64,000 bases of DNA, from assembly GCF_030013595.1 (NCBI RefSeq), contig NZ_CP122768.1; one strand, given 5' to 3'. The DNA is from Escherichia coli. GTDB taxonomy: Bacteria; Pseudomonadota; Gammaproteobacteria; Enterobacterales; Enterobacteriaceae. A program made the translations under genes and the position numbers. The first letter of the stretch is position 1. Every line of letters begins with the position of its first letter. Below, piece after piece: positions 1 through 59,704 of this stretch. The notes under the pieces are model-generated. The model was not told where the DNA came from. It saw only the letters and a list, made by a program, of their open reading frames with translations, and did no database searches.

Positions 1-982
1 TACGCCGCCGCCGAAAATGGGGACGACGTCTACAGCTCAGCAACCGCAAATTCAGCCGGTACAGCAGCCACAAATTCAGGCAACTCAACAACCGCAAATC
101 CAGCCGGTGCAGCCAGTAGCTCAGCAGCCGGTACAGATGGAAAACGGACGCATCGTCTACAACCGTCAGTATGGGAACATTCCGAAAGGCAGTTATAGCG
201 GCAGTACCTATACCGTGAAAAAAGGCGACACACTTTTCTATATCGCCTGGATTACTGGCAACGATTTCCGTGACCTTGCTCAGCGCAACAATATTCAGGC
301 ACCATACGCGCTGAACGTCGGTCAGACCTTACAGGTGGGTAATGCTTCCGGTACGCCAATCACTGGCGGAAATGCCATTACCCAGGCCGATGCAGCAGAG
401 CAAGGAGTTGTGATCAAGCCTGCACAAAATTCCACCGTTGCTGTTGCTTCGCAACCGACAATTACGTATTCTGAGTCTTCGGGTGAACAGAGTGCTAACA
501 AAATGTTGCCGAACAACAAGCCAACTGCGACCACGGTCACAGCGCCTGTAACGGTACCAACAGCAAGCACAACCGAGCCGACTGTCAGCAGTACATCAAC
601 CAGTACGCCTATCTCCACCTGGCGCTGGCCGACTGAGGGCAAAGTGATCGAAACCTTTGGCGCTTCTGAGGGGGGCAACAAGGGGATTGATATCGCAGGC
701 AGCAAAGGACAGGCAATTATCGCGACCGCAGATGGCCGCGTTGTTTATGCCGGTAACGCACTGCGCGGCTACGGTAATCTGATTATCATCAAACATAATG
801 ATGATTACCTGAGTGCCTACGCCCATAACGACACAATGCTGGTCCGGGAACAACAAGAAGTGAAGGCGGGGCAAAAAATAGCAACCATGGGTAGCACCGG
901 AACCAGTTCAACACGCTTGCATTTTGAAATTCGTTACAAGGGGAAATCCGTAAACCCGCTGCGTTATTTGCCGCAGCGATAA
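1..982 (+). CDS. nlpD: NlpD murein hydrolase activator lipoprotein, 5' end truncated by the window edge (LysM-like segment and C-terminal M23/LytM-like domain)
   Basis: Open frame runs from the window edge to TAA at 980-982; translation ...[18 protein letters not shown]... matches NlpD as I recall it; the ATG at 17 in the ORF track is internal. Confidence 0.93.
20..140 (+). repeat. Imperfect tandem ~21-24 bp repeats encoding a Gln/Pro-rich linker (QQPQIQP units) inside nlpD
   Basis: Direct reading: repeated cag-caa/cca-ccg-caa-att-cag-ccg-gt units giving [25 protein letters not shown]. Confidence 0.45.
444..472 (+). promoter_or_regulatory. Candidate main rpoS promoter inside nlpD (-35 ttgctt 444-449, 17-bp spacer, -10 tattct 467-472)
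   Basis: Hexamers with 17-bp spacing; predicted start ~479 gives a ~566-nt leader to the rpoS ATG at 1045, matching the known long rpoS 5' UTR (from memory). Confidence 0.55.
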
Positions 983-1044
983 ATCGGCGGAACCAGGCTT
1001 TTGCTTGAATGTTCCGTCAAGGGATCACGGGTAGGAGCCACCTT

Positions 1045-2037
1045 ATGAGTCAGAATACGCTGAAAGTTCATGATTTAAATGAAGATGCGGAATTTGATGA
1101 GAACGGAGTTGAGGTTTTTGACGAAAAGGCCTTAGTAGAAGAGGAACCCAGTGATAACGATTTGGCCGAAGAGGAACTGTTATCGCAGGGAGCCACACAG
1201 CGTGTGTTGGACGCGACTCAGCTTTACCTTGGTGAGATTGGTTATTCACCACTGTTAACGGCCGAAGAAGAAGTTTATTTTGCGCGTCGCGCACTGCGTG
1301 GAGATGTTGCCTCCCGCCGCCGGATGATCGAGAGTAACTTGCGTCTGGTGGTAAAAATTGCCCGCCGTTATGGCAATCGTGGTCTGGCGTTGCTGGACCT
1401 GATCGAAGAGGGCAACCTGGGGCTGATCCGCGCGGTAGAGAAGTTTGACCCGGAACGTGGTTTCCGCTTCTCAACATACGCAACCTGGTGGATTCGCCAG
1501 ACGATTGAACGGGCGATTATGAACCAAACCCGTACTATTCGTTTGCCTATTCACATCGTAAAGGAGCTGAACGTTTACCTGCGAACCGCACGCGAGTTGT
1601 CCCATAAACTGGACCACGAACCAAGTGCGGAAGAGATCGCAGAGCAACTGGATAAGCCAGTTGATGACGTCAGCCGTATGCTTCGTCTTAACGAGCGCAT
1701 TACCTCGGTAGACACCCCGCTGGGTGGTGATTCCGAAAAAGCGTTGCTGGACATCCTGGCCGATGAAAAAGAGAACGGTCCGGAAGATACCACGCAAGAT
1801 GACGATATGAAGCAGAGCATCGTCAAATGGCTGTTCGAGCTGAACGCCAAACAGCGTGAAGTACTGGCACGTCGATTCGGTTTGCTGGGGTACGAAGCGG
1901 CAACACTGGAAGATGTAGGTCGTGAAATTGGCCTCACCCGTGAACGTGTTCGCCAGATTCAGGTTGAAGGCCTGCGCCGTTTGCGCGAAATCCTGCAAAC
2001 GCAGGGGCTGAATATCGAAGCGCTGTTCCGCGAGTAA
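1045..2037 (+). CDS. rpoS: RNA polymerase sigma factor RpoS (sigma-S/sigma-38), 330 aa
   Basis: Translation [34 protein letters not shown]... with sigma-70 family regions; the track ORF from 1009 is a 5' over-extension; codon 33 is GAG. Confidence 0.96.
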
Positions 2038-2054
2038 GTAAGCATCTGTCAGAA

Positions 2055-2089
2055 AGGCCAGTCTCAAGCGAGGCTGGCCTTTTTCTTTT
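2055..2089 (+). terminator. Intrinsic terminator downstream of rpoS
   Basis: Stem aggccag(2055-2061)/ctggcct(2074-2080) followed by tttttctttt. Confidence 0.7.
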
Positions 2090-2157
2090 GGTTGGGAAGT
2101 CGGTGTGTTTTGTCGCCTGGATAAGACTCGTCAGCGTCCTACCCGGCAATCAGCATC

Positions 2158-2565
2158 CTATTTGCTCATCATCTTGCGCACCAACTGCATAAACAGCTCC
2201 TTCTCTTCTGCACTCAAACGCCCCAAAAATTCCTCATCCACACTGTCACCAATGGGGATCGCCGCAGCAAGTACCTTTTCTCCTTCGGCAGTCAGCCAGA
2301 CAAAGCGACGCCGCTTGTCAGCGGCGTCATGTTCACGTCTGACTAAGCCACGATTTTCCATTCTTGCCAACATTTCTGCCAGCGTTGCTTTGGTGCTGAC
2401 TGCTGCTTCTATCAGTGCCACCTGTTCGATACCAGGCTTATCAGCAATGGCGCGCATCACCGCGTACTGTGGTTTGGTGAGGTCAGGTAACTCGTGCTGC
2501 CAGCGAGCCGTGTGCTGCTGAAAAAGCTGTCGTAACTGATGGAACGCTTTATTTCGTAACGCCAT
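2158..2565 (-). CDS. MarR-family winged-helix transcriptional regulator, divergent from the decarboxylase operon
   Basis: Translation MALRNKAFHQLRQLF...DKRRRFVWLTAEGEKV has a MarR-type wHTH; start chosen at ATG 2565 because of GGAG Shine-Dalgarno 6 nt upstream; the track start at 2598 lacks one. Confidence 0.8.
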   Translation of the reverse strand: MALRNKAFHQLRQLFQQHTARWQHELPDLTKPQYAVMRAIADKPGIEQVALIEAAVSTKATLAEMLARMENRGLVRREHDAADKRRRFVWLTAEGEKVLAAAIPIGDSVDEEFLGRLSAEEKELFMQLVRKMMSK

Positions 2566-2680
2566 GTAAACTCCGGGCAAACTATCTGCCGCTATCATAG
2601 CGGTTTTTCAGTGACGAAGAAGATGTTGTTACTTTTCAGTGCTTGCCGCGATGAAAACAGAGGCGTATTTTAATAATGAC

Positions 2681-2694
2681 GTTCGTATACGAAC
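2681..2694. promoter_or_regulatory. Perfect 14-bp palindrome gttcgtatacgaac, candidate operator for the adjacent MarR-type regulator
   Basis: Exact inverted repeat 18 bp upstream of the ATG at 2712, inside the divergent promoter region. Confidence 0.45.
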
Positions 2695-2711
2695 AATTAA
2701 GAGAATAAACA

Positions 2712-3305
2712 ATGAGACTGATCGTCGGGATGACAGGGGCTACCGGTGCGCCTCTTGGGGTGGCATTACTGCAAGCGCTGCGGGAGATGCCGAATGTCGA
2801 GACTCATCTGGTGATGTCGAAGTGGGCGAAAACCACTATTGAACTGGAAACGCCTTACAGCGCTCGCGATGTTGCCGCCCTCGCAGACTTCAACCATAAC
2901 CCGGCGGATCAGGCGGCGACTATCTCTTCCGGCTCCTTTCGTACCGACGGCATGATCGTTATTCCATGCAGTATGAAAACGCTCGCCGGTATCCGCGCTG
3001 GTTACGCCGATGGTCTCGTGGGGCGCGCGGCGGACGTCGTGCTCAAAGAAGGCCGCAAACTGGTGCTGGTGCCGCGTGAAATGCCGCTTAGCACAATCCA
3101 TCTCGAAAATATGCTCGCACTTTCGCGCATGGGCGTGGCGATGGTGCCGCCGATGCCTGCCTTTTATAACCATCCCGAAACGGTAGATGACATTGTCCAC
3201 CACGTGGTAGCCCGCGTGCTGGATCAATTTGGCCTCGAACATCCTCACGCCAGGCGCTGGCAAGGATTGCCGCAGGCCCGGAATTTTTCTCAGGAGAATG
3301 AATAA
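2712..3305 (+). CDS. ecdB: UbiX/Pad1-family flavin prenyltransferase, subunit B of a hydroxyarylic acid (phenolic acid) decarboxylase
   Basis: Translation MRLIVGMTGATGAPLGVALLQAL... typical of UbiX-like proteins; first gene of a B-C-D operon; symbol by analogy to ecdBCD/kpdBCD naming, as recalled. Confidence 0.85.
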   Translation: MRLIVGMTGATGAPLGVALLQALREMPNVETHLVMSKWAKTTIELETPYSARDVAALADFNHNPADQAATISSGSFRTDGMIVIPCSMKTLAGIRAGYADGLVGRAADVVLKEGRKLVLVPREMPLSTIHLENMLALSRMGVAMVPPMPAFYNHPETVDDIVHHVVARVLDQFGLEHPHARRWQGLPQARNFSQENE

Positions 3306-4732
3306 TGGCATTTGATGATTTACGCAGCTTTTTACAGGCGCTTGATGACCACGGCCAGTTACTGAAAATCAGCGAAGAGGTGAACGCGGAACCGGATCTG
3401 GCAGCCGCTGCCAACGCCACCGGACGTATCGGCGATGGTGCACCGGCGCTGTGGTTTGACAATATTCGCGGCTTTATCGATGCCCGCGTGGCAATGAATA
3501 CCATCGGTTCCTGGCAGAACCACGCGATTTCCCTCGGCCTGCCGCCAAACACCCCGGTTAAAAAGCAGATTGATGAGTTTATCCGCCGCTGGGATAACTT
3601 CCCCATTACCCCGGAGCGCCGCGCCAATCCAGCCTGGGCGCAGAACACCGTCGATGGCGACGAGATCAACCTGTTCGATATTCTGCCGCTGTTTCGTTTA
3701 AACGACGGTGATGGCGGTTTCTATCTCGATAAAGCGTGCGTGGTTTCCCGCGATCCGCTCGACCCGGATAACTTCGGCAAGCAGAACGTCGGCATCTACC
3801 GCATGGAAGTGAAGGGCAAACGTAAGCTCGGCCTGCAACCGGTGCCGATGCACGATATCGCTCTGCATCTGCATAAAGCGGAAGAACGCGGTGAAGATCT
3901 GCCGATTGCCATCACCCTGGGTAACGATCCGATCATCACCCTGATGGGCGCCACGCCGCTGAAATACGATCAGTCTGAGTACGAAATGGCGGGCGCGCTG
4001 CGCGAAAGCCCGTACCCGATCGCCACCGCCCCGCTGACCGGTTTTGATGTGCCGTGGGGCTCGGAAGTGATCCTCGAAGGGGTTATCGAAAGTCGTAAAC
4101 GTGAGATTGAAGGGCCGTTCGGTGAGTTTACCGGTCACTACTCCGGCGGGCGTAACATGACCGTGGTGCGTATCGATAAAGTCTCTTACCGTACCAAACC
4201 GATTTTCGAATCGCTCTATCTTGGTATGCCGTGGACCGAAATCGACTACCTGATGGGGCCTGCCACCTGCGTGCCGCTGTATCAGCAACTGAAAGCCGAG
4301 TTCCCGGAAGTGCAGGCGGTAAACGCCATGTACACCCACGGCCTGTTGGCGATTATCTCCACCAAAAAACGCTACGGCGGCTTTGCCCGCGCGGTGGGCC
4401 TGCGTGCAATGACCACGCCGCACGGTCTGGGCTACGTGAAGATGGTGATTATGGTCGATGAAGACGTTGATCCGTTCAACCTGCCGCAGGTGATGTGGGC
4501 GCTCTCCTCGAAAGTGAACCCGGCAGGCGACCTGGTGCAGTTGCCAAATATGTCCGTGCTGGAACTCGACCCTGGCTCAAGCCCGGCGGGGATCACCGAC
4601 AAGCTGATTATCGACGCCACCACGCCTGTCGCCCCGGACAACCGTGGTCACTACAGCCAGCCGGTGGTGGATTTACCGGAAACCAAAGCCTGGGCTGAAA
4701 AACTGACTGCTATGCTGGCCGCACGTAAATAA
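3305..4732 (+). CDS. ecdC: UbiD-family decarboxylase, catalytic subunit C of a hydroxyarylic acid decarboxylase
   Basis: 475-aa ORF with UbiD-like sequence; start overlaps the upstream stop (ATAATGG), indicating translational coupling. Confidence 0.85.
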   Translation: MAFDDLRSFLQALDDHGQLLKISEEVNAEPDLAAAANATGRIGDGAPALWFDNIRGFIDARVAMNTIGSWQNHAISLGLPPNTPVKKQIDEFIRRWDNFPITPERRANPAWAQNTVDGDEINLFDILPLFRLNDGDGGFYLDKACVVSRDPLDPDNFGKQNVGIYRMEVKGKRKLGLQPVPMHDIALHLHKAEERGEDLPIAITLGNDPIITLMGATPLKYDQSEYEMAGALRESPYPIATAPLTGFDVPWGSEVILEGVIESRKREIEGPFGEFTGHYSGGRNMTVVRIDKVSYRTKPIFESLYLGMPWTEIDYLMGPATCVPLYQQLKAEFPEVQAVNAMYTHGLLAIISTKKRYGGFARAVGLRAMTTPHGLGYVKMVIMVDEDVDPFNLPQVMWALSSKVNPAGDLVQLPNMSVLELDPGSSPAGITDKLIIDATTPVAPDNRGHYSQPVVDLPETKAWAEKLTAMLAARK

Positions 4733-4742
4733 GGAGAACAAG

Positions 4743-4979
4743 ATGATTTGTCCACGTTGTGCCGATGAACAGATTGAAGTGATGGCGAAATCGCCGGTGA
4801 AAGATGTCTGGACGGTCTACCAGTGCCAGCATTGCCTTTATACCTGGCGCGATACCGAACCGCTACGCCGCACTAGCCGCGAACATTATCCCGAAGCGTT
4901 CCGCATGACGCAGAAAGATATTGATGACGCGCCGATGGTGCCGAGCATCCCGCCGCTGCTGGCGGAAGGTAAGCGCTAA
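4743..4979 (+). CDS. ecdD: Small subunit D of the hydroxyarylic acid decarboxylase (Cys-rich, 78 aa)
   Basis: MICPRCADEQ...CQHC motif; position and size match the small D subunit of B-C-D operons; AAGGAG Shine-Dalgarno upstream. Confidence 0.75.
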   Translation: MICPRCADEQIEVMAKSPVKDVWTVYQCQHCLYTWRDTEPLRRTSREHYPEAFRMTQKDIDDAPMVPSIPPLLAEGKR

Positions 4980-4981
4980 AT

Positions 4982-5010
4982 AAAAGGTCCGATGCCCATC
5001 GGACCTTTTT
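4982..5010. terminator. Bidirectional intrinsic terminator between the convergent ecdD and ygbN
   Basis: aaaa + stem ggtccgatg/catcggacc (4986-5005) + ttttt. Confidence 0.7.
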
Positions 5011-5017
5011 ATTAAGG

Positions 5018-6382
5018 TCAAATTACCGCCCATACGCACCAGGTAATTAAGAATCCGGTAAAACCGAGAATGGTCGTTAACACTGTCCAGGTTTTCAGAC
5101 CGTCTGCTACCGACAACCCCAGATATTTGGTCACAATCCAGAACCCTGAGTCATTAATATGTGACGCGCCAAGCCCACCAAAGCAGGCTGCCAGCGTCAC
5201 CAATACGCACTGAATCGGATTCAATCCCATCACCGCTTCTGAGAGTAACCCGCCGGTTGTCAGGATTGCTACGGTTGCTGACCCCTGCGATGCACGCAGC
5301 GCCAGTGAAATAATAAATGCGGCTGGTAACAGAGGCAGGTCAATCATTTGTAGCATGTTGGCAAGGGCTTTGCCGACGCCCGATTCCACCAGCACTTTGC
5401 CAAATACCCCTCCAGCACCAGTAACCAAAATCACTACCGCCGCAGTGGGAAGGGCTGAGCCCATAATGTCGCTGGTGTGTTGTAAGCTCCAGCCGCGACG
5501 TAAAGCCAATAACCAGAATGCCAGTACCAGCGCAATCATTAGAGCTACCATTGGTGAGCCGATCAGCTGTAGCGTACCAAGCAGGGGATGCGAAGGCGGC
5601 ATCAGTGTTGCGGAAACCGTACCCGCCATGATAATCGCGATAGGAATAACAATTAGCGAGGTGACCAGCGCGACGCCCGGTGGATTTATTTTATCGCTTA
5701 ATTTTGTCGCGCCTTCCTCACTGGCCGGAGCCAGTTGCATCTGTTCCAGTACTTCCACCGACATCGCATATTGGCGCTTATTGATTATTTTCGCTGCAAA
5801 GTAGCCAACAATCCCTACTGGAATAGAAATCGCAATACCGATGATGGTTAGCCAGCCGATGTCTGCGTGGAGTAACCCCGCTGCGGCGACAGGGCCTGGA
5901 TGCGGCGGTACCGCCACATGAACAGTTAGCATGATTCCAGCGACAGGCAGGCCAAATTTGAGTGGCGATATTTTGGCAACCTTGGCAAAACCGTAAATGA
6001 TTGGCGCAAGAATAATAAAGCCGACATCAAAGAAGACGGGAATACCGAGGAAGAACGCTGCCAGAGTCAGCGCAGCGATAGTTCGTTTGTCACCTAACTT
6101 GCGACTGAAATAATTAGCCAGTGACTCTGCACCACCAGAGTGTTCGATCATACGCCCCAGCATAGCGCCCAGACCAATAATAATAGTGACGGAACCAAGC
6201 ACACCGCCCATCCCGGCGATCATCACTTTACCCACTTCGCCCGCCGGTATACCCGCCGCAAGTGCGACTAACAGGCTGACGAGGAGCAGAGCAACGAATG
6301 GTTGTACCTTTGCCTTGATGACCAGCAGCAACAGCATGATTACGCCAGTTAACGCAATGCATAACAATGTAATTGTGGACAT
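5018..6382 (-). CDS. ygbN: GntP-family permease (putative acid-sugar transporter)
   Basis: 454-aa polytopic membrane protein MSTITLLCIALTGVIMLLLLVIKAK...; order ygbJ-K-L-M-N conserved. Confidence 0.9.
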   Translation of the reverse strand: MSTITLLCIALTGVIMLLLLVIKAKVQPFVALLLVSLLVALAAGIPAGEVGKVMIAGMGGVLGSVTIIIGLGAMLGRMIEHSGGAESLANYFSRKLGDKRTIAALTLAAFFLGIPVFFDVGFIILAPIIYGFAKVAKISPLKFGLPVAGIMLTVHVAVPPHPGPVAAAGLLHADIGWLTIIGIAISIPVGIVGYFAAKIINKRQYAMSVEVLEQMQLAPASEEGATKLSDKINPPGVALVTSLIVIPIAIIMAGTVSATLMPPSHPLLGTLQLIGSPMVALMIALVLAFWLLALRRGWSLQHTSDIMGSALPTAAVVILVTGAGGVFGKVLVESGVGKALANMLQMIDLPLLPAAFIISLALRASQGSATVAILTTGGLLSEAVMGLNPIQCVLVTLAACFGGLGASHINDSGFWIVTKYLGLSVADGLKTWTVLTTILGFTGFLITWCVWAVI

Positions 6383-6470
6383 GGGAAACCCTGTCTGAAA
6401 GTTATAGTTAACCTACCCCATCCGTAGATGGGGGGATGTATGGGTACGTTGTAATTAGGGATTTAACGAA

Positions 6471-7247
6471 TTAGCGCCAGGCGTCAAACCAGCCAAGCCC
6501 TTCTTCGGTGAGGCCACGAGGTTTATATTCACAACCGATCCAGCCCTGATATCCCACCTCATCGAACAGGCGGAACAGCCACGGATAGTTGATTTCTCCA
6601 TCGTCCGGTTCATGTCGATCAGGTAGTCCGGCAATTTGTACGTGCGCATATTTCCCGGCGTAGTCGCGGATTAAATGCGTCAGGTTGCCATCTACTTTTT
6701 GCGCATGAAAAGTATCTAGTTGAATAAACACGTTATCTCGCGCAACTTCTTCAACAATAGCCAGTGCCTGATACTGGCTGGAGAAGAGATAATGAGGCTT
6801 AACGCCGGGGCTGAGTGCTTCAACTAATATTCGCTTGCCGTGTGGCGCAAAGCGGTCGGCAGCGTAGCGGAGGTTATCGATAAATACTGCCCTGTACCGT
6901 TCAGCATCTTCGCCAGCGGGCACGACGCCTGCCATCACATGGACTTGTTCACAATTGAGCGCCAATGCATATTCCAGTGCCAGGTCGATGTCTGCGTGTG
7001 CTTCGTGCTCACGTCCGGGAAGGGCGGATAATCCCCATTCCCCCGCATTAATATCTCCGGGAGCGGTATTGAACAGCGCCAGTGTCAGATGGTTTTGCTC
7101 CAGTTGCTTTTGGATTTGCAGGGTGGAGTAGTCATAGGGAAACAGAAATTCCACAGCATCGAACCCGGCTTTTCGCGCTGCGGCGAAGCGTTCAATAAAA
7201 GGCACTTCGGTGAACATCATGGATAAATTAGCTGCAAAACGAGGCAT
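6471..7247 (-). CDS. ygbM: Hydroxypyruvate-isomerase-like TIM-barrel enzyme (2-oxo-tetronate isomerase OtnI)
   Basis: 258-aa [24 protein letters not shown]...; xylose-isomerase-like fold family. Confidence 0.88.
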
Positions 7248-15060: not shown

Positions 15061-15489
15061 TTACGCTTTGGTGGCAATCAGGATGGCTGATGCTTTGATC
15101 AATGCAATAACGCGCGAGCCAGTGGTGAGTTTCATTTCATCCTGACTTTCATTTGTTACCACTGCCACAATTTCAAAACCCGCATCCGTTTTGATATGGA
15201 CAGTGGCGTTCACTGCGCCTTCGGTGATTGTCGACACGCTGCCAGCAAACTGGTTGCGAGCAGAGAATTTCAGTCCACAGTCTTCCGTTGCCAGCGTGAC
15301 CCACGGGGCTTTAATCAGGGCAATCGCTTCTTTCCCTTTTGCCAGACCCAGAGCCTGCTGGCTGCTGTGAGTCACAATTGCCACCAGCTTTGCACCACCT
15401 GCCAGCGTCAGTTCTACTTCATCATTCACAGCGCCCATTGCTACTGCGCTAACTGTTCCGGTTAATTGATTTCTTGCTGAAACTGCCAT
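15061..15489 (-). CDS. Tandem-TOBE (Mop-like) molybdate/tungstate-binding molbindin, ~142 aa
   Basis: Two internal repeats each starting SARNQ(L/F)xGxV...; start at ATG 15489 preceded by AAGGAGG; lies 44 bp downstream of the fhlA stop on the same strand. Confidence 0.75.
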   Translation of the reverse strand: MAVSARNQLTGTVSAVAMGAVNDEVELTLAGGAKLVAIVTHSSQQALGLAKGKEAIALIKAPWVTLATEDCGLKFSARNQFAGSVSTITEGAVNATVHIKTDAGFEIVAVVTNESQDEMKLTTGSRVIALIKASAILIATKA

Positions 15490-29401: not shown

Positions 29402-30175
29402 TTGAACATCAGAACAGGGATGTGCGCTTTTTTATTGAGCTTAGTGCTGCCTGCACAGGCCACCAGCTTTACCGAATATCTGCCGATGAGTGACAGCGAA
29501 TACGCGCAAAAGCGGGCGCTGAAACCTCTCCTGACCATGCCTTATGATGCCGAGCAAAACTGGCATTTTAGAAAAGTCGGCGTTGCTGGCGTGACGCTTG
29601 AAAAGATGCCAAATGATGATAGTGAATGGCAATTGAACGGTAAAGATCGCGCCGGTAAATCCTGGTCTGTGCCTGTGGGGGTGCTGCAAAATATGGCGGG
29701 TAATGCGCAACTTTACCGTGCCGATCTTGATCGTAACGGCATTCAGGATCTAGTTATCTGGCGGGGTATTTCAGGAAATGGTCTGGCACCTAACGCGTTT
29801 TTGATTCTGATGACCTTTAATCAGCAAGGTCGCCCGTGTGTTTTTCAGTCCGATGGTTTTTATACCGCAAGTGAAACTGGCATTGATGATTTGCTGGATT
29901 TACAAAGGAATGGCCACACGCAATTGCTGGATATGCAGTTTGATTCCGGTTACTGGATAACCAGTCTGTATCAGGTAAAAGACGCCAAATGGCAGCGTGT
30001 TCACGGCTGGTTTGGCAAGTTAAGCTATCCCGCGCTCACGCGTTTTACTTATACCCCCAACCGTAAACTCGTCCTCAAACCCATCGCCGGGCGCGACCCG
30101 CAATCGGAAGATCTGGCGCTGACGCAGCGTTGCTTGATAAAGGGGGATGTGCTTTATGGGGTGAATCAGAACTGA
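29402..30175 (+). CDS. Uncharacterised predicted secreted protein (~257 aa) with N-terminal signal peptide and two Asp-rich D-x-D/Q-x-N-G loops
   Basis: n-region with Arg, hydrophobic core CAFLLSLVL, AQA|TS cleavage site; motifs ADLDRNGIQDLVIW and LDLQRNGHTQLLD; start ambiguous between TTG 29402 and ATG 29420; only 24 bp after the hycI stop with no terminator. Confidence 0.6.
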   Translation: MNIRTGMCAFLLSLVLPAQATSFTEYLPMSDSEYAQKRALKPLLTMPYDAEQNWHFRKVGVAGVTLEKMPNDDSEWQLNGKDRAGKSWSVPVGVLQNMAGNAQLYRADLDRNGIQDLVIWRGISGNGLAPNAFLILMTFNQQGRPCVFQSDGFYTASETGIDDLLDLQRNGHTQLLDMQFDSGYWITSLYQVKDAKWQRVHGWFGKLSYPALTRFTYTPNRKLVLKPIAGRDPQSEDLALTQRCLIKGDVLYGVNQN

Positions 30176-30237
30176 CTTTTTGCAGAGTGGCTATGTGGAT
30201 TTTGGGGGTAATTATATAGCGTACAAGTGTTTACATA

Positions 30238-30266
30238 TTGTGAACTTTGATTTGATGAGCTATAGT
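30238..30266 (+). promoter_or_regulatory. Candidate sigma-70 promoter for the HigBA-like pair (-35 ttgtga, 17-bp spacer, -10 tatagt)
   Basis: Hexamers in an AT-rich spacer ~70 bp upstream of the toxin ATG. Confidence 0.4.
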
Positions 30267-30336
30267 TTCCGAACACATAAGGATAGAACTCGCAGATGTG
30301 GCTGTTTACTTACTATAAGGAAGTTAAAACTTAAAA

Positions 30337-30648
30337 ATGCACATCATTTCTAAAGCGCCATTTGAAGAGTGTGCGCGCAAATATCCTAACGACGCTCTGG
30401 CTCTACACTCATTGTATCGGGTTATTAAGGAAACGGATTTTTCTACACCAGAAGAAATGCGAACGGCGTTTCCCAACCTCGACAATTTTAGATATCGCAA
30501 CAAATGGTACGTTCTGGATGTCGGCGGGAACAATCTTAGGGTTATTGCCTACATAAACTTTGTTAATAAGCGGTTCTTTGTGAAGCACATAACGAATCAC
30601 GCAGAGTATGACAAACTGACACGTTACTACAGAGAGAACAAAGAATGA
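30337..30648 (+). CDS. HigB-family type II toxin (RelE/ParE-fold mRNA interferase), 103 aa
   Basis: MHIISKAPFEECARKYP...FPNLDNFRYRNKWYVLDVGGNNLRVIAYI... resembles HigB/YgjN-type toxins; toxin gene precedes the antitoxin with a 4-bp ATGA overlap. Confidence 0.8.
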   Translation: MHIISKAPFEECARKYPNDALALHSLYRVIKETDFSTPEEMRTAFPNLDNFRYRNKWYVLDVGGNNLRVIAYINFVNKRFFVKHITNHAEYDKLTRYYRENKE

Positions 30649-31064
30649 CTGCTAATGCTGCACGCGCTGTTAAAGCAACAAGAGAACTGGTCAATGCAGT
30701 CCCCTTTCTGGGAGGTAGTGACTCAGAAGATGATTATCGTGAAGCACTGGAACTGGTCGAATATTTGATTGAAGAAGATGACACCAATCCACTTATCGAC
30801 TTTCTGGCGAGCCGCATTGCAGAGTATGAAAGCAACAACGAAAAGTTTGCAGAGTTCGACAAAGCCGTTGCTGCAATGCCGGTTGGCGTGGCGTTACTTC
30901 GTACGCTGATTGATCAACATAATCTGACCTACGCGGATTTGAAGAACGAAATCGGCTCTAAATCCCTGGTCAGTCAGATTTTGTCTGGGCAACGATCCCT
31001 GACGATATCCCACATTAAGGCACTTTCAGCCCGATTTGGTGTTAAGCCGGAATGGTTTCTTTGA
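30645..31064 (+). CDS. HigA-family antitoxin (XRE-type HTH at the C-terminus), 139 aa
   Basis: ...GSKSLVSQILSGQRSLTISHIKALSARFGV... HTH segment; translationally coupled to the upstream toxin. Confidence 0.8.
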   Translation: MTANAARAVKATRELVNAVPFLGGSDSEDDYREALELVEYLIEEDDTNPLIDFLASRIAEYESNNEKFAEFDKAVAAMPVGVALLRTLIDQHNLTYADLKNEIGSKSLVSQILSGQRSLTISHIKALSARFGVKPEWFL

Positions 31065-54851: not shown

Positions 54852-54944
54852 GGTGAGGTGGCCGAGAGGCTGAAGGCGCTCCCCTGCTAAGGGAGTATGC
54901 GGTCAAAAGCTGCATCCGGGGTTCGAATCCCCGCCTCACCGCCA
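54852..54944 (+). tRNA. serV: tRNA-Ser (anticodon GCU), 93 nt including CCA
   Basis: Cloverleaf with long variable arm; anticodon loop cuGCUaa; ends ...ccgcctcaccgcca. Confidence 0.93.
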
Positions 54945-54947
54945 TTT

Positions 54948-55024
54948 GCATCCGTAGCTCAGCTGGATAGAGTACTCGGCTACGAACCGAGCGGTCGGAG
55001 GTTCGAATCCTCCCGGATGCACCA
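54948..55024 (+). tRNA. tRNA-Arg (anticodon ACG), 77 nt, copy 1
   Basis: gcatccgtagctcagctggatagagtactcggctACGaaccgagcggtcggaggttcgaatcctcccggatgcacca; 3 nt after tRNA-Ser. Confidence 0.93.
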
Positions 55025-55139
55025 TATTCTACGTACTTTCAGCGATGAAGGTATAGAAGAGGTGGCGGTAATAACCGCAGGCACCAGGGAGGATAACGTT
55101 GCTTTAGCAACGGCCCGAAGGGCGAGCCGCAAGGCGAGT

Positions 55140-55158
55140 AATCCTCCCGGATGCACCA
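55140..55158 (+). other. 19-nt 3'-terminal fragment of tRNA-Arg (aatcctcccggatgcacca) in the long spacer
   Basis: Exact match to the last 19 nt of the intact copies; upstream sequence diverges. Confidence 0.7.
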
Positions 55159-55222
55159 TCTCTTACTTGATACGGCTTTAGTAGCGGTATCAAAAAATCT
55201 GCAGTAAAGTAAGTTTCCCGAT

Positions 55223-55299
55223 GCATCCGTAGCTCAGCTGGATAGAGTACTCGGCTACGAACCGAGCGGTCGGAGGTTCGAATCCTCCCGGATGCACCA
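55223..55299 (+). tRNA. tRNA-Arg (anticodon ACG), 77 nt, copy 2
   Basis: Identical to copy 1. Confidence 0.93.
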
Positions 55300-55401
55300 T
55301 ATTCTCCGTAATCATCAGTGATGATGGTTAAGATGGATTTTCTTATTTGATATGGCTTTAGTAGCGGTATCAATATCAGCAGTAAAATAAGTTTTCCCGA
55401 T

Positions 55402-55478
55402 GCATCCGTAGCTCAGCTGGATAGAGTACTCGGCTACGAACCGAGCGGTCGGAGGTTCGAATCCTCCCGGATGCACCA
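55402..55478 (+). tRNA. tRNA-Arg (anticodon ACG), 77 nt, copy 3
   Basis: Identical to copy 1. Confidence 0.93.
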
Positions 55479-58316: not shown

Positions 58317-58389
58317 AAAAAGGCCACTCGTGAGTGGCCAAAATTTCATCTCTGAATTCAGGGATGATGATAACAAATGCGCGTCTTTC
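58317..58389 (-). ncRNA. micA: MicA (SraD) Hfq-dependent small RNA, ~73 nt
   Basis: Reverse strand reads GAAAGACGCGCATTTGTTATCATCATCCCTGAATTCAGAGATGAAATTTTGGCCACTCACGAGTGGCCTTTTT, ending in a terminator hairpin (58322-58339) plus U-run; sits between gshA and luxS. Confidence 0.9.
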
Positions 58390-59109: not shown

Positions 59110-59568
59110 TTACTTACGGCCCGTAAACGGGCTGCCCGGATAGGGAATCGATAACTGATCTCCCATTTTATCCTCTTCAAGCTGGTGCTTTATGTAATCC
59201 TGTATCTTCGCCGTGTTCTTACCCACTGTATCGACGTAGTACCCTCTGCACCAGAACTCCCTGTTCCTGTATTTGAATTTCAAATCACCAAACTGCTCGT
59301 AAAGCATCAGACTGCTTTTCCCTTTCAGATATCCCATAAACCCGGATACGCTCATTTTGGGCGGGATCTCCACAAGCATATGGATATGATCTGCACAGCA
59401 TTCAGCTTCCAGAATCCGTACGCTTTTCCACTCACACAGCTTTCTCAAAATACTGCCTATTGCTCTACGCTTCTCTCTGTAGAACACCTGTCTTCGGTAT
59501 TTTGGCGCAAAAACTATGTGATATTTACAGTTCCATCGGGTGTGCGCTAAGCTCTTTTCGTTCCCCAT
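59110..59568 (-). CDS. tnpA: IS200-type transposase TnpA (HuH single-strand transposase), 152 aa
   Basis: MGNEKSLAHTRWNCKYHIVFAPKYRR...CCADHIHMLVEIPPK...YVDTVGKN (HuH and catalytic Tyr region); the track ORF is extended 17 codons. Confidence 0.92.
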   Translation of the reverse strand: MGNEKSLAHTRWNCKYHIVFAPKYRRQVFYREKRRAIGSILRKLCEWKSVRILEAECCADHIHMLVEIPPKMSVSGFMGYLKGKSSLMLYEQFGDLKFKYRNREFWCRGYYVDTVGKNTAKIQDYIKHQLEEDKMGDQLSIPYPGSPFTGRK

Positions 59569-59573
59569 TGGGA

Positions 59574-59643
59574 CCCCCTTTTGATTTCTTGTTTGACACT
59601 TGCAGTTGCCAGACCGCAAGGTGTTTTAACAAATCAAAAGGGG
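59574..59643 (-). promoter_or_regulatory. Long imperfect stem-loop in the tnpA leader that pairs with the Shine-Dalgarno sequence
   Basis: cccccttttgattt (59574-59587) pairs with aaatcaaaagggg (59631-59643); the tnpA Shine-Dalgarno lies in the 3' arm, as described for IS200. Confidence 0.6.
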
Positions 59644-59680
59644 TTTTAATAACTGGCTCAAAGCTGAAAGCTTTCCGGAA

Positions 59681-59704
59681 CCCCCAGCCTAGCTGGGGGT
59701 TTTC
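59681..59704 (+). repeat. Subterminal hairpin at the tnpA-proximal end of the IS200-like element (cccccagcctagctggggg + tttt)
   Basis: 19-nt palindrome matching the other end hairpin in architecture. Confidence 0.6.

Follow-up and report, generated by a model that had tools for sequence, protein, structure and literature searches.

The hosA-ecdBCD locus between rpoS and ygbN of an Escherichia coli strain, a probable 4-hydroxybenzoate decarboxylase operon without counterpart in K-12

The main finding of this work is the identification of the genes that occupy the interval between rpoS and ygbN in a 64,000-nucleotide stretch of Escherichia coli DNA (contig NZ_CP122768.1 of assembly GCF_030013595.1; hereafter, the window). 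They very probably constitute the hosA-ecdBCD locus, also designated slyA/kpdR-kpdBCD, pad1-yclC or 'HAD operon', that is, a decarboxylase operon controlled by the repressor HosA and induced by 4-hydroxybenzoate (4-HBA), which was retained in this strain, alongside the ygbI-ygbN block, and lost in K-12. Gene identity and intactness, family membership, presence and conservation of the operator, distribution and synteny were computed here, whereas enzyme activity, the inducer, the promoter position and the zinc role of cysteines were taken from the literature or inferred.

A first-pass annotation had proposed, at positions 2090-5017, a MarR-type regulator, a UbiX-like protein, a UbiD-like protein and a small cysteine-rich subunit lying in a gap that is short in K-12. 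The six-frame list of open reading frames (ORFs), with lengths compared with family profiles and solved structures, confirmed four full-length ORFs between rpoS and ygbN, and the proposed limits were right within a few bases, since prefix and suffix identity with K-12 MG1655 delimits a segment of 2895 bp without counterpart at 2084-4978. In MG1655 the rpoS and ygbN stop codons are separated by only 93 bp, from which the four genes are absent; the first 46 nt of this gap equal the window up to 2083 and the last 39 nt equal the window from 4979, leaving 8 nt in K-12 against 2895 bp here between identical flanks. K-12 covers just 3% of the locus query, restricted to both flanks. A near-identical strain in RefSeq shows a single mismatch in 2980 bp (2038-5017), and there the B, C and D genes are labelled as subunits of a non-oxidative hydroxyarylic acid decarboxylase, names that identical genes carry across thousands of genomes. 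On the plus strand, ecdB (pad1/kpdB/vdcB type; 2712-3305) is predicted to encode a UbiX-family flavin prenyltransferase of 197 amino acids, ecdC (yclC/kpdC/vdcC type; 3305-4732) a UbiD-family decarboxylase of 475 amino acids dependent on prenylated flavin mononucleotide (prFMN), and ecdD (4743-4979) a small subunit of 78 amino acids with a CxxC...CxxC zinc-ribbon-like motif. The ecdB stop codon and the ecdC ATG overlap by 1 nt (TAATG), only 10 nt separate ecdC from ecdD, and both ecdC and ecdD are preceded by AGGAG-type ribosome-binding sites; this arrangement fits a single transcription unit for ecdBCD.

As judged from their sequences, the B, C and D subunits are those of a BCD-type non-oxidative reversible hydroxyarylic acid decarboxylase (Vdc/Bsd/Shd/Kpd/Ecd). 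All three exceed the cut-offs of the corresponding NCBIfam models, namely NF041206 (VdcB) for EcdB, with 312.8 bits against a cut-off of 290, NF041204 (VdcC) for EcdC, with 788.9 bits against 650, and NF041205 (VdcD) for EcdD, with 121.2 bits against 30. EcdB scores higher with the BagM/FevK model (343.6 bits), yet this value lies under the cut-off of 420 set for that family. At 194 of its 197 residues EcdB is identical to PDB entry 1SBZ, which is named 'Probable aromatic acid decarboxylase' in the PDB table and which we take to be Pad1 of O157:H7. Among solved structures, ShdC (PDB 7AE4, chain A) comes closest to EcdC, and the two align end to end (E = 3.5e-160). The motifs N161VGIYR166, MH183D, SE226YEMAG and E269GPFGE274 are present in EcdC and aligned with both ShdC and UbiD; from what is known of Fdc1 and UbiD, they presumably serve in metal and prFMN binding and in the catalytic Glu-Arg-Glu network. 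The match of EcdD to ShdD (7AE4, chain a) has an E value of 3.4e-11 and aligns each of the four cysteines (C3, C6, C28 and C31), which we assume to be zinc ligands.

The divergent gene, which the first-pass annotation had assigned to a MarR-type regulator, encodes HosA. The protein differs by 2 substitutions in 134 aligned residues from PDB entry 8AGA, 'Transcriptional regulator HosA' (E = 2.5e-83), and six further PDB entries were matched besides it. Although the longest ORF extends over 2158-2598 on the minus strand, the annotated and crystallised start lies at 2565, so that hosA (2158-2565) is taken to encode a MarR/SlyA-family repressor of 135 amino acids, in agreement with the RefSeq start and with MarR-family matches. 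In the hosA-ecdB intergenic region, the HosA operator is found as the 14-bp perfect palindrome GTTCGTATACGAAC (2681-2694), 17 nt 5' of the ecdB ATG. A repeat search with a seed of 6 missed this palindrome, probably since its arms abut, and the operator was read directly from the sequence. Together with its flanks it matches the oligonucleotides used for the HosA site of strain UMN026, which read ...TTTTAATAATAAC-site-AATTAAGAGAATAAACA-TGAG (PMC6261655, supplement), and the text of the same paper gives the site a length of 14 bp. Three divergent E. coli alleles keep the operator unchanged, although the rest of their intergenic regions matches the window at only 88-99%. Moreover, the half-sites GTTCG-N4-CGAAC occur in 45 of 45 hosA-ecdB intergenic regions of other species, mostly 16-19 nt before ecdB. 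A putative ecdB promoter (2643-2671, plus strand) can be proposed from the sequence, with a -35 element TTGCCG (2643-2648), a 17-nt spacer and a -10 element TATTTT (2666-2671). It is supported solely by a GTAnnTT element that other alleles and genera conserve 5' of the operator, and its position would put the operator at about +2 to +16, with transcription predicted to start near 2678-2680.

Previous studies on HosA agree with this arrangement. HosA has been reported to bind a site that lies 3' of the transcription start and from there to repress both the HAD operon and hosA itself, a repression that 4-HBA relieves (Roy and Ranjan 2016, as related in the citing papers bioRxiv 10.1101/2024.04.24.590444, PMC6261655 and PMC6694116), and it is reported to be selective for 4-HBA over close analogues (PMC6694116). 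Two observations weigh against the proposed identification of operator and promoter. The oligonucleotide table of PMC6261655 gives the site as GTTTCGTATACGAAC, with 15 nt and one T more than the window, a discrepancy that may reflect either strain variation or a printing error; and a sigma-70 consensus scan of 2000-5100 found no promoter at its threshold, the putative ecdB promoter falling below it with 8 of 12 consensus positions matched.

Based on characterized members of the family, we propose that EcdB would supply prFMN and that EcdC would use it in an obligate complex with EcdD, as expected from the finding that VdcC is inactive without VdcD (PMC10865409). The complex would catalyze the non-oxidative and reversible removal of CO2 from 4-hydroxybenzoate to give phenol, and related 4-hydroxyaryl acids, perhaps vanillate, would probably also be substrates. 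HosA bound to its operator, just 3' of the inferred ecdB transcription start, would block the operon and probably also hosA; binding of 4-HBA would cause HosA to leave the DNA and the operon to be induced, and in this way the substrate would induce its own removal. The decarboxylation of 4-HBA by EcdBCD is supported through its orthologues and through the ligand of HosA. When kpdBCD of Klebsiella pneumoniae was expressed in E. coli, the lysate formed phenol from 4-hydroxybenzoate (Lupa 2005, cited by PMC6424909), and EcdC of the window is 97.5% identical to the Klebsiella orthologue. The ratio of nonsynonymous to synonymous divergence (dN/dS) of ecdC, about 0.015-0.02, shows very strong purifying selection and is likewise in keeping with the proposed operon.

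It might be asked whether the main substrate is instead another phenolic acid, such as vanillate, protocatechuate, gallate or some host or dietary phenolic, or whether the enzyme works chiefly as a carboxylase in the anaerobic, high-CO2 gut. The family is called 'reversible', its Vdc and Shd members accept vanillate besides 4-HBA (according to the family names and PMC10865409), and the purifying selection on ecdC is stronger than might be expected for occasional detoxification. We nevertheless consider this explanation unlikely, as HosA responds to 4-HBA and not to its close analogues, the near-identical Klebsiella enzyme yields phenol from 4-HBA in the work cited above, and the AroY-type protocatechuate decarboxylases are distant relatives. 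An assignment of EcdC to the AroY type was rejected on the latter ground, since 5O3M and 5NY5 match at E values of only about 1e-24 to 1e-27, compared with 3.5e-160 for ShdC.

The position of the locus was compared across bacteria by scanning one genome per species with an EcdC peptide pattern, which returned 96 stretches, 80 of which were analyzed by tblastn. The order nlpD-rpoS-hosA-ecdBCD-(pphB)-mutS was found in 32 loci among these 80 stretches, belonging to about 15 genera of Enterobacteriaceae, including Citrobacter, Klebsiella, Kluyvera, Enterobacter, Leclercia, Lelliottia, Salmonella, Atlantibacter, Cedecea, Phytobacter, Pluralibacter, Pseudocitrobacter and Pseudenterobacter as well as other Escherichia species. 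Since this order is common to so many genera, it is K-12 that would have lost the segment, and the 'insertion' of which the first-pass annotation had spoken is better described as a retained segment that was deleted in K-12. In the simplest history, hosA-ecdBCD would be ancestral at this site, the ygbI-ygbN block would have been added in Escherichia, and K-12-type strains would then have lost the cluster; the comparison thus documents the short rpoS-ygbN gap of K-12 as what appears to be a derived, deleted state. The cluster lies away from rpoS in Rahnella, Pantoea, Erwinia, Mixta and Vibrio, some of which carry it on megaplasmids. The whole of hosA-ecdBCD is inverted in Salmonella enterica subsp. 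arizonae and diarizonae and in Phytobacter, so that ecdD adjoins rpoS, and in Leclercia, Enterobacter and Lelliottia some 2.6 kb of additional DNA separates rpoS from hosA.

We regard it as improbable that the segment is a recently acquired islet, horizontally transferred into a K-12-like rpoS-ygbN junction. Several observations are in favor of such an islet. The G+C content reaches 55-59% over 2800-4800, compared with 50-53% in the flanks; the E. coli alleles of the locus are 4-5% apart, compared with about 1% for rpoS; and a preprint argues that HosA was acquired horizontally, from Shigella (bioRxiv 10.1101/2024.04.24.590444). In addition, hosA, ecdB and the 5' part of ecdC share 62-86% identity with Pseudocitrobacter, a figure that climbs to 92-98% between about 3445 and the ecdD end, above the 86-92% of rpoS, and the synonymous divergence (dS) between the two genera is 0.28 for ecdC, 0.68 for rpoS and 1.00 for ecdB. 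This pattern, with its abrupt breakpoint near 3400-3450, suggests that Escherichia and Pseudocitrobacter exchanged the 3' part of ecdC together with ecdD. Recombination that replaced alleles of an ancestral locus accounts for such a mosaic, however, and no insertion event is then required. Besides the shared gene order beside rpoS and mutS, in most genera the dS of ecdC (about 0.8-1.1) follows the values for rpoS and mutS. The junctions speak against the islet as well, as neither a direct repeat nor a target-site duplication was found at 2083/2084 or 4978/4979, the segment holds no mobility genes, and the 8-nt filler of K-12, CTGTGCAC, occurs nowhere in it. Nor was carriage on a true plasmid found in E. 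coli by tblastn, where the 'plasmid' matches had record lengths of 4.8-4.9 Mb and were thus chromosomes labelled wrongly; megaplasmids proper carried the cluster in Pantoea, Rahnella and Chimaeribacter only. Taken together, the G+C content, the divergence of alleles and the mosaic boundary speak for an exchange of alleles by recombination at this known hotspot, and not for a new insertion.

The left boundary of the segment (2083/2084) falls within the T-tract of the rpoS intrinsic terminator, whose hairpin (2051-2084, plus strand; -25.4 kcal/mol) was located by the terminator scan, folding and mapping of the junction. When positions 2076-2092 of the window were compared with 3039-3055 of the MG1655 stretch, the stem and hairpin proved to be the same in both, and the tail reads TTTTTCTTTT here and TTTTCTGTG in K-12. 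At the other end of the segment, a hairpin flanked by A-runs and T-runs (4982-5009) lies between the convergent ecdD and ygbN genes and is unchanged in K-12, where it stands 3' of ygbN. The terminator scan did not list this hairpin, whose existence was confirmed by folding, at -18.7 kcal/mol on the plus strand and -17.3 kcal/mol on the minus strand (z = -4.4 and -3.5, respectively). Since it folds well on both strands, it is probably a bidirectional terminator that ends both ecdD and ygbN.

These features raise a more speculative reading, in which ecdBCD would be a core module kept beside rpoS throughout the Enterobacteriaceae rather than an optional accessory for detoxification, and in which its loss in K-12-type and B2 strains would alter the rpoS 3' end or convergent transcription. 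The first part would follow from the low dN/dS of ecdC (about 0.02), from protein conservation at the level of MutS and nearing that of RpoS, and from the invariance of the operator half-sites across genera; the second from the change of the U-tract from UUUUUCUUUU to UUUUCUGUG and from the exchange of the convergent hosA for ygbN. We hold this reading to be highly improbable; if it were true, loss of the segment could contribute to the known differences in RpoS level among strains.

Ubiquinone is made in K-12 without this segment, which already counts against a redundant second UbiX/UbiD pair acting on 3-polyprenyl-4-hydroxybenzoate. This last explanation is hardly credible, for although the proteins belong to the same superfamilies (TIGR00421 ubiX_pad, 245.7 bits; TIGR00148 UbiD family, 418.8 bits) and UbiD of E. 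coli is a detectable relative of EcdC (PDB 2IDB, E = 1e-46), EcdC attains only 173.5 bits with the UbiD equivalog PRK10922, whose cut-off is 788, the match to ShdC is better than that to UbiD by more than 110 orders of magnitude, a D subunit belonging to the VdcCD type is present, and the regulator senses free 4-HBA according to the literature. UbiD proper was rejected for EcdC on the first two of these grounds, and the view of the first-pass annotation that these proteins fall in the phenolic-acid decarboxylase clade, and not with UbiX and UbiD of ubiquinone biosynthesis, is borne out by the scores with PRK10922 and with the VdcB, VdcC and VdcD models.

For the hosA-ecdBCD locus, publications already cover the genes, the regulator with its inducing ligand and its operator, three related crystal structures, the polymorphism in the population and the value of the locus as a strain-typing marker, and the earlier judgement that it is not novel was sound. 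The closest systems are EcdBCD (Pad1/YclC) of O157:H7 and the HosA-HAD operon of UMN026 and enteropathogenic E. coli (EPEC), which have the same genes, order, divergent regulator and operator as the window. Nucleotide identity between the window and an O157-type allele is 95.9%; at the DNA level the allele of the window differs by 4-5% from those of O157 type and ET565 type, and the DNA 3' of ecdD also differs, with ygbN following in the window and pphB-mutS following directly in an O157-like strain. KpdBCD of K. pneumoniae and the decarboxylase of Enterobacter cloacae that acts on 4-hydroxybenzoate are encoded by an orthologous operon at the same rpoS-mutS site, the proteins of Klebsiella and Enterobacter showing about 97-98% identity to the window for EcdC, 83-90% for EcdB and 71-81% for HosA. 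ShdCD/VdcCD of Sedimentibacter hydroxybenzoicus (7AE4, 7AE5 and 7AE7) shares the heteromeric architecture of C and D subunits, the UbiD motifs and the cysteines of D, but it comes from a distant lineage of Firmicutes, with many substitutions in the C subunit and a different regulator.

In E. coli, at least 80% of the length of the segment is present in 2380 of 5426 complete genomes, and 1592 of these 5426 have the ecdD-ygbN junction as found here. The first-pass annotation had likened the gene set to a cluster reported in some pathogenic lineages; the identity of the cluster stood, but a carriage this wide does not agree with confinement to such lineages. Several other configurations were seen at this site. 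The K-12 type has the 93 bp between rpoS and ygbN, the O157-like type has ecdD-pphB-mutS without ygbI-ygbN, a variant of the latter carries an extra TPR gene, and in the B2 type the segment is replaced by genes for a flavodoxin-family protein and an MBL-fold hydrolase. These configurations correspond to the o454-nlpD patterns I-IV described earlier (PMC4209514). The mutS-rpoS interval had rightly been called a polymorphic region, and the window shows pattern IV, the type of EPEC E2348/69, in which rpoS-hosA(slyA)-kpdBCD-o454(ygbN) is followed by ygbM to ygbI, pphB and mutS, as in the annotation of the near-identical RefSeq strain; no substantive difference from the published pattern, to which the paper assigns an amplicon of 4,546 bp, was found.

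The surroundings of the locus are as follows. The 3' part of nlpD (17-982 in the ORF list) lies upstream of an intact rpoS of 330 amino acids (1045-2037, plus strand), annotated as WP_000081550.1 in the near-identical RefSeq strain. On the right, ygbN (o454; 5018-6382, minus strand) bears the annotation of a GntP-family transporter and scores 827.5 bits with PRK09821, against a cut-off of 524. An Rfam search of positions 1-6500 returned no known RNA family. Next to ygbN, ygbM (6471-7247, minus strand) has the RefSeq label 'HPr family phosphocarrier protein', derived from NCBIfam PRK09989.1. The protein also exceeds the cut-off of 325 set for the 2-oxo-tetronate isomerase equivalog (396 bits) and is homologous to hydroxypyruvate isomerase; its designation as HPr appears to be a naming error in the database.

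Elsewhere in the window, the ygbA-fhlA interval holds a gene (15061-15489, minus strand) for a protein of 142 amino acids with two Mop/TOBE molybdopterin-binding domains, annotated 'TOBE domain-containing protein', which corresponds to c3292 of PMC4209514; in an O157-like strain no TOBE gene is annotated between ygbA and fhlA. The hycI-ascB interval (29402-31064, plus strand) contains a hypothetical ORF of 251-257 amino acids without NCBIfam match, together with a HigB-family toxin and helix-turn-helix antitoxin pair (30337-30648 and 30645-31064), and these genes look like a small strain-variable insert between hyc and asc. A copy of IS200 (59110-59701, minus strand) lies between luxS and emrB, its tnpA being recognized with 147.7 bits by the IS200-family model, and the Rfam element STnc490 (59578-59701) is located directly 5' of this tnpA on the same strand. 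MicA (58318-58389) occupies its customary position. The serV-arg tRNA array (54852-55478) carries three copies of tRNA-Arg(ACG), while that of K-12 presumably has four. Ahead of the third copy, the spacer exceeds that of the otherwise near-identical pig strain HCP5S3_I2 by 39 bp, and it is here that the window and that record lose register.

With regard to the biology of the strain, the locus types it as non-K-12 and non-B2, with the pattern IV configuration of the rpoS-mutS region, in which the hairpin of the rpoS terminator is intact. By analogy with the characterized orthologues, the strain is predicted to convert 4-hydroxybenzoate, arising from parabens, plant phenolics or the breakdown of tyrosine, into phenol, which is a precursor of a gut-derived uraemic toxin.

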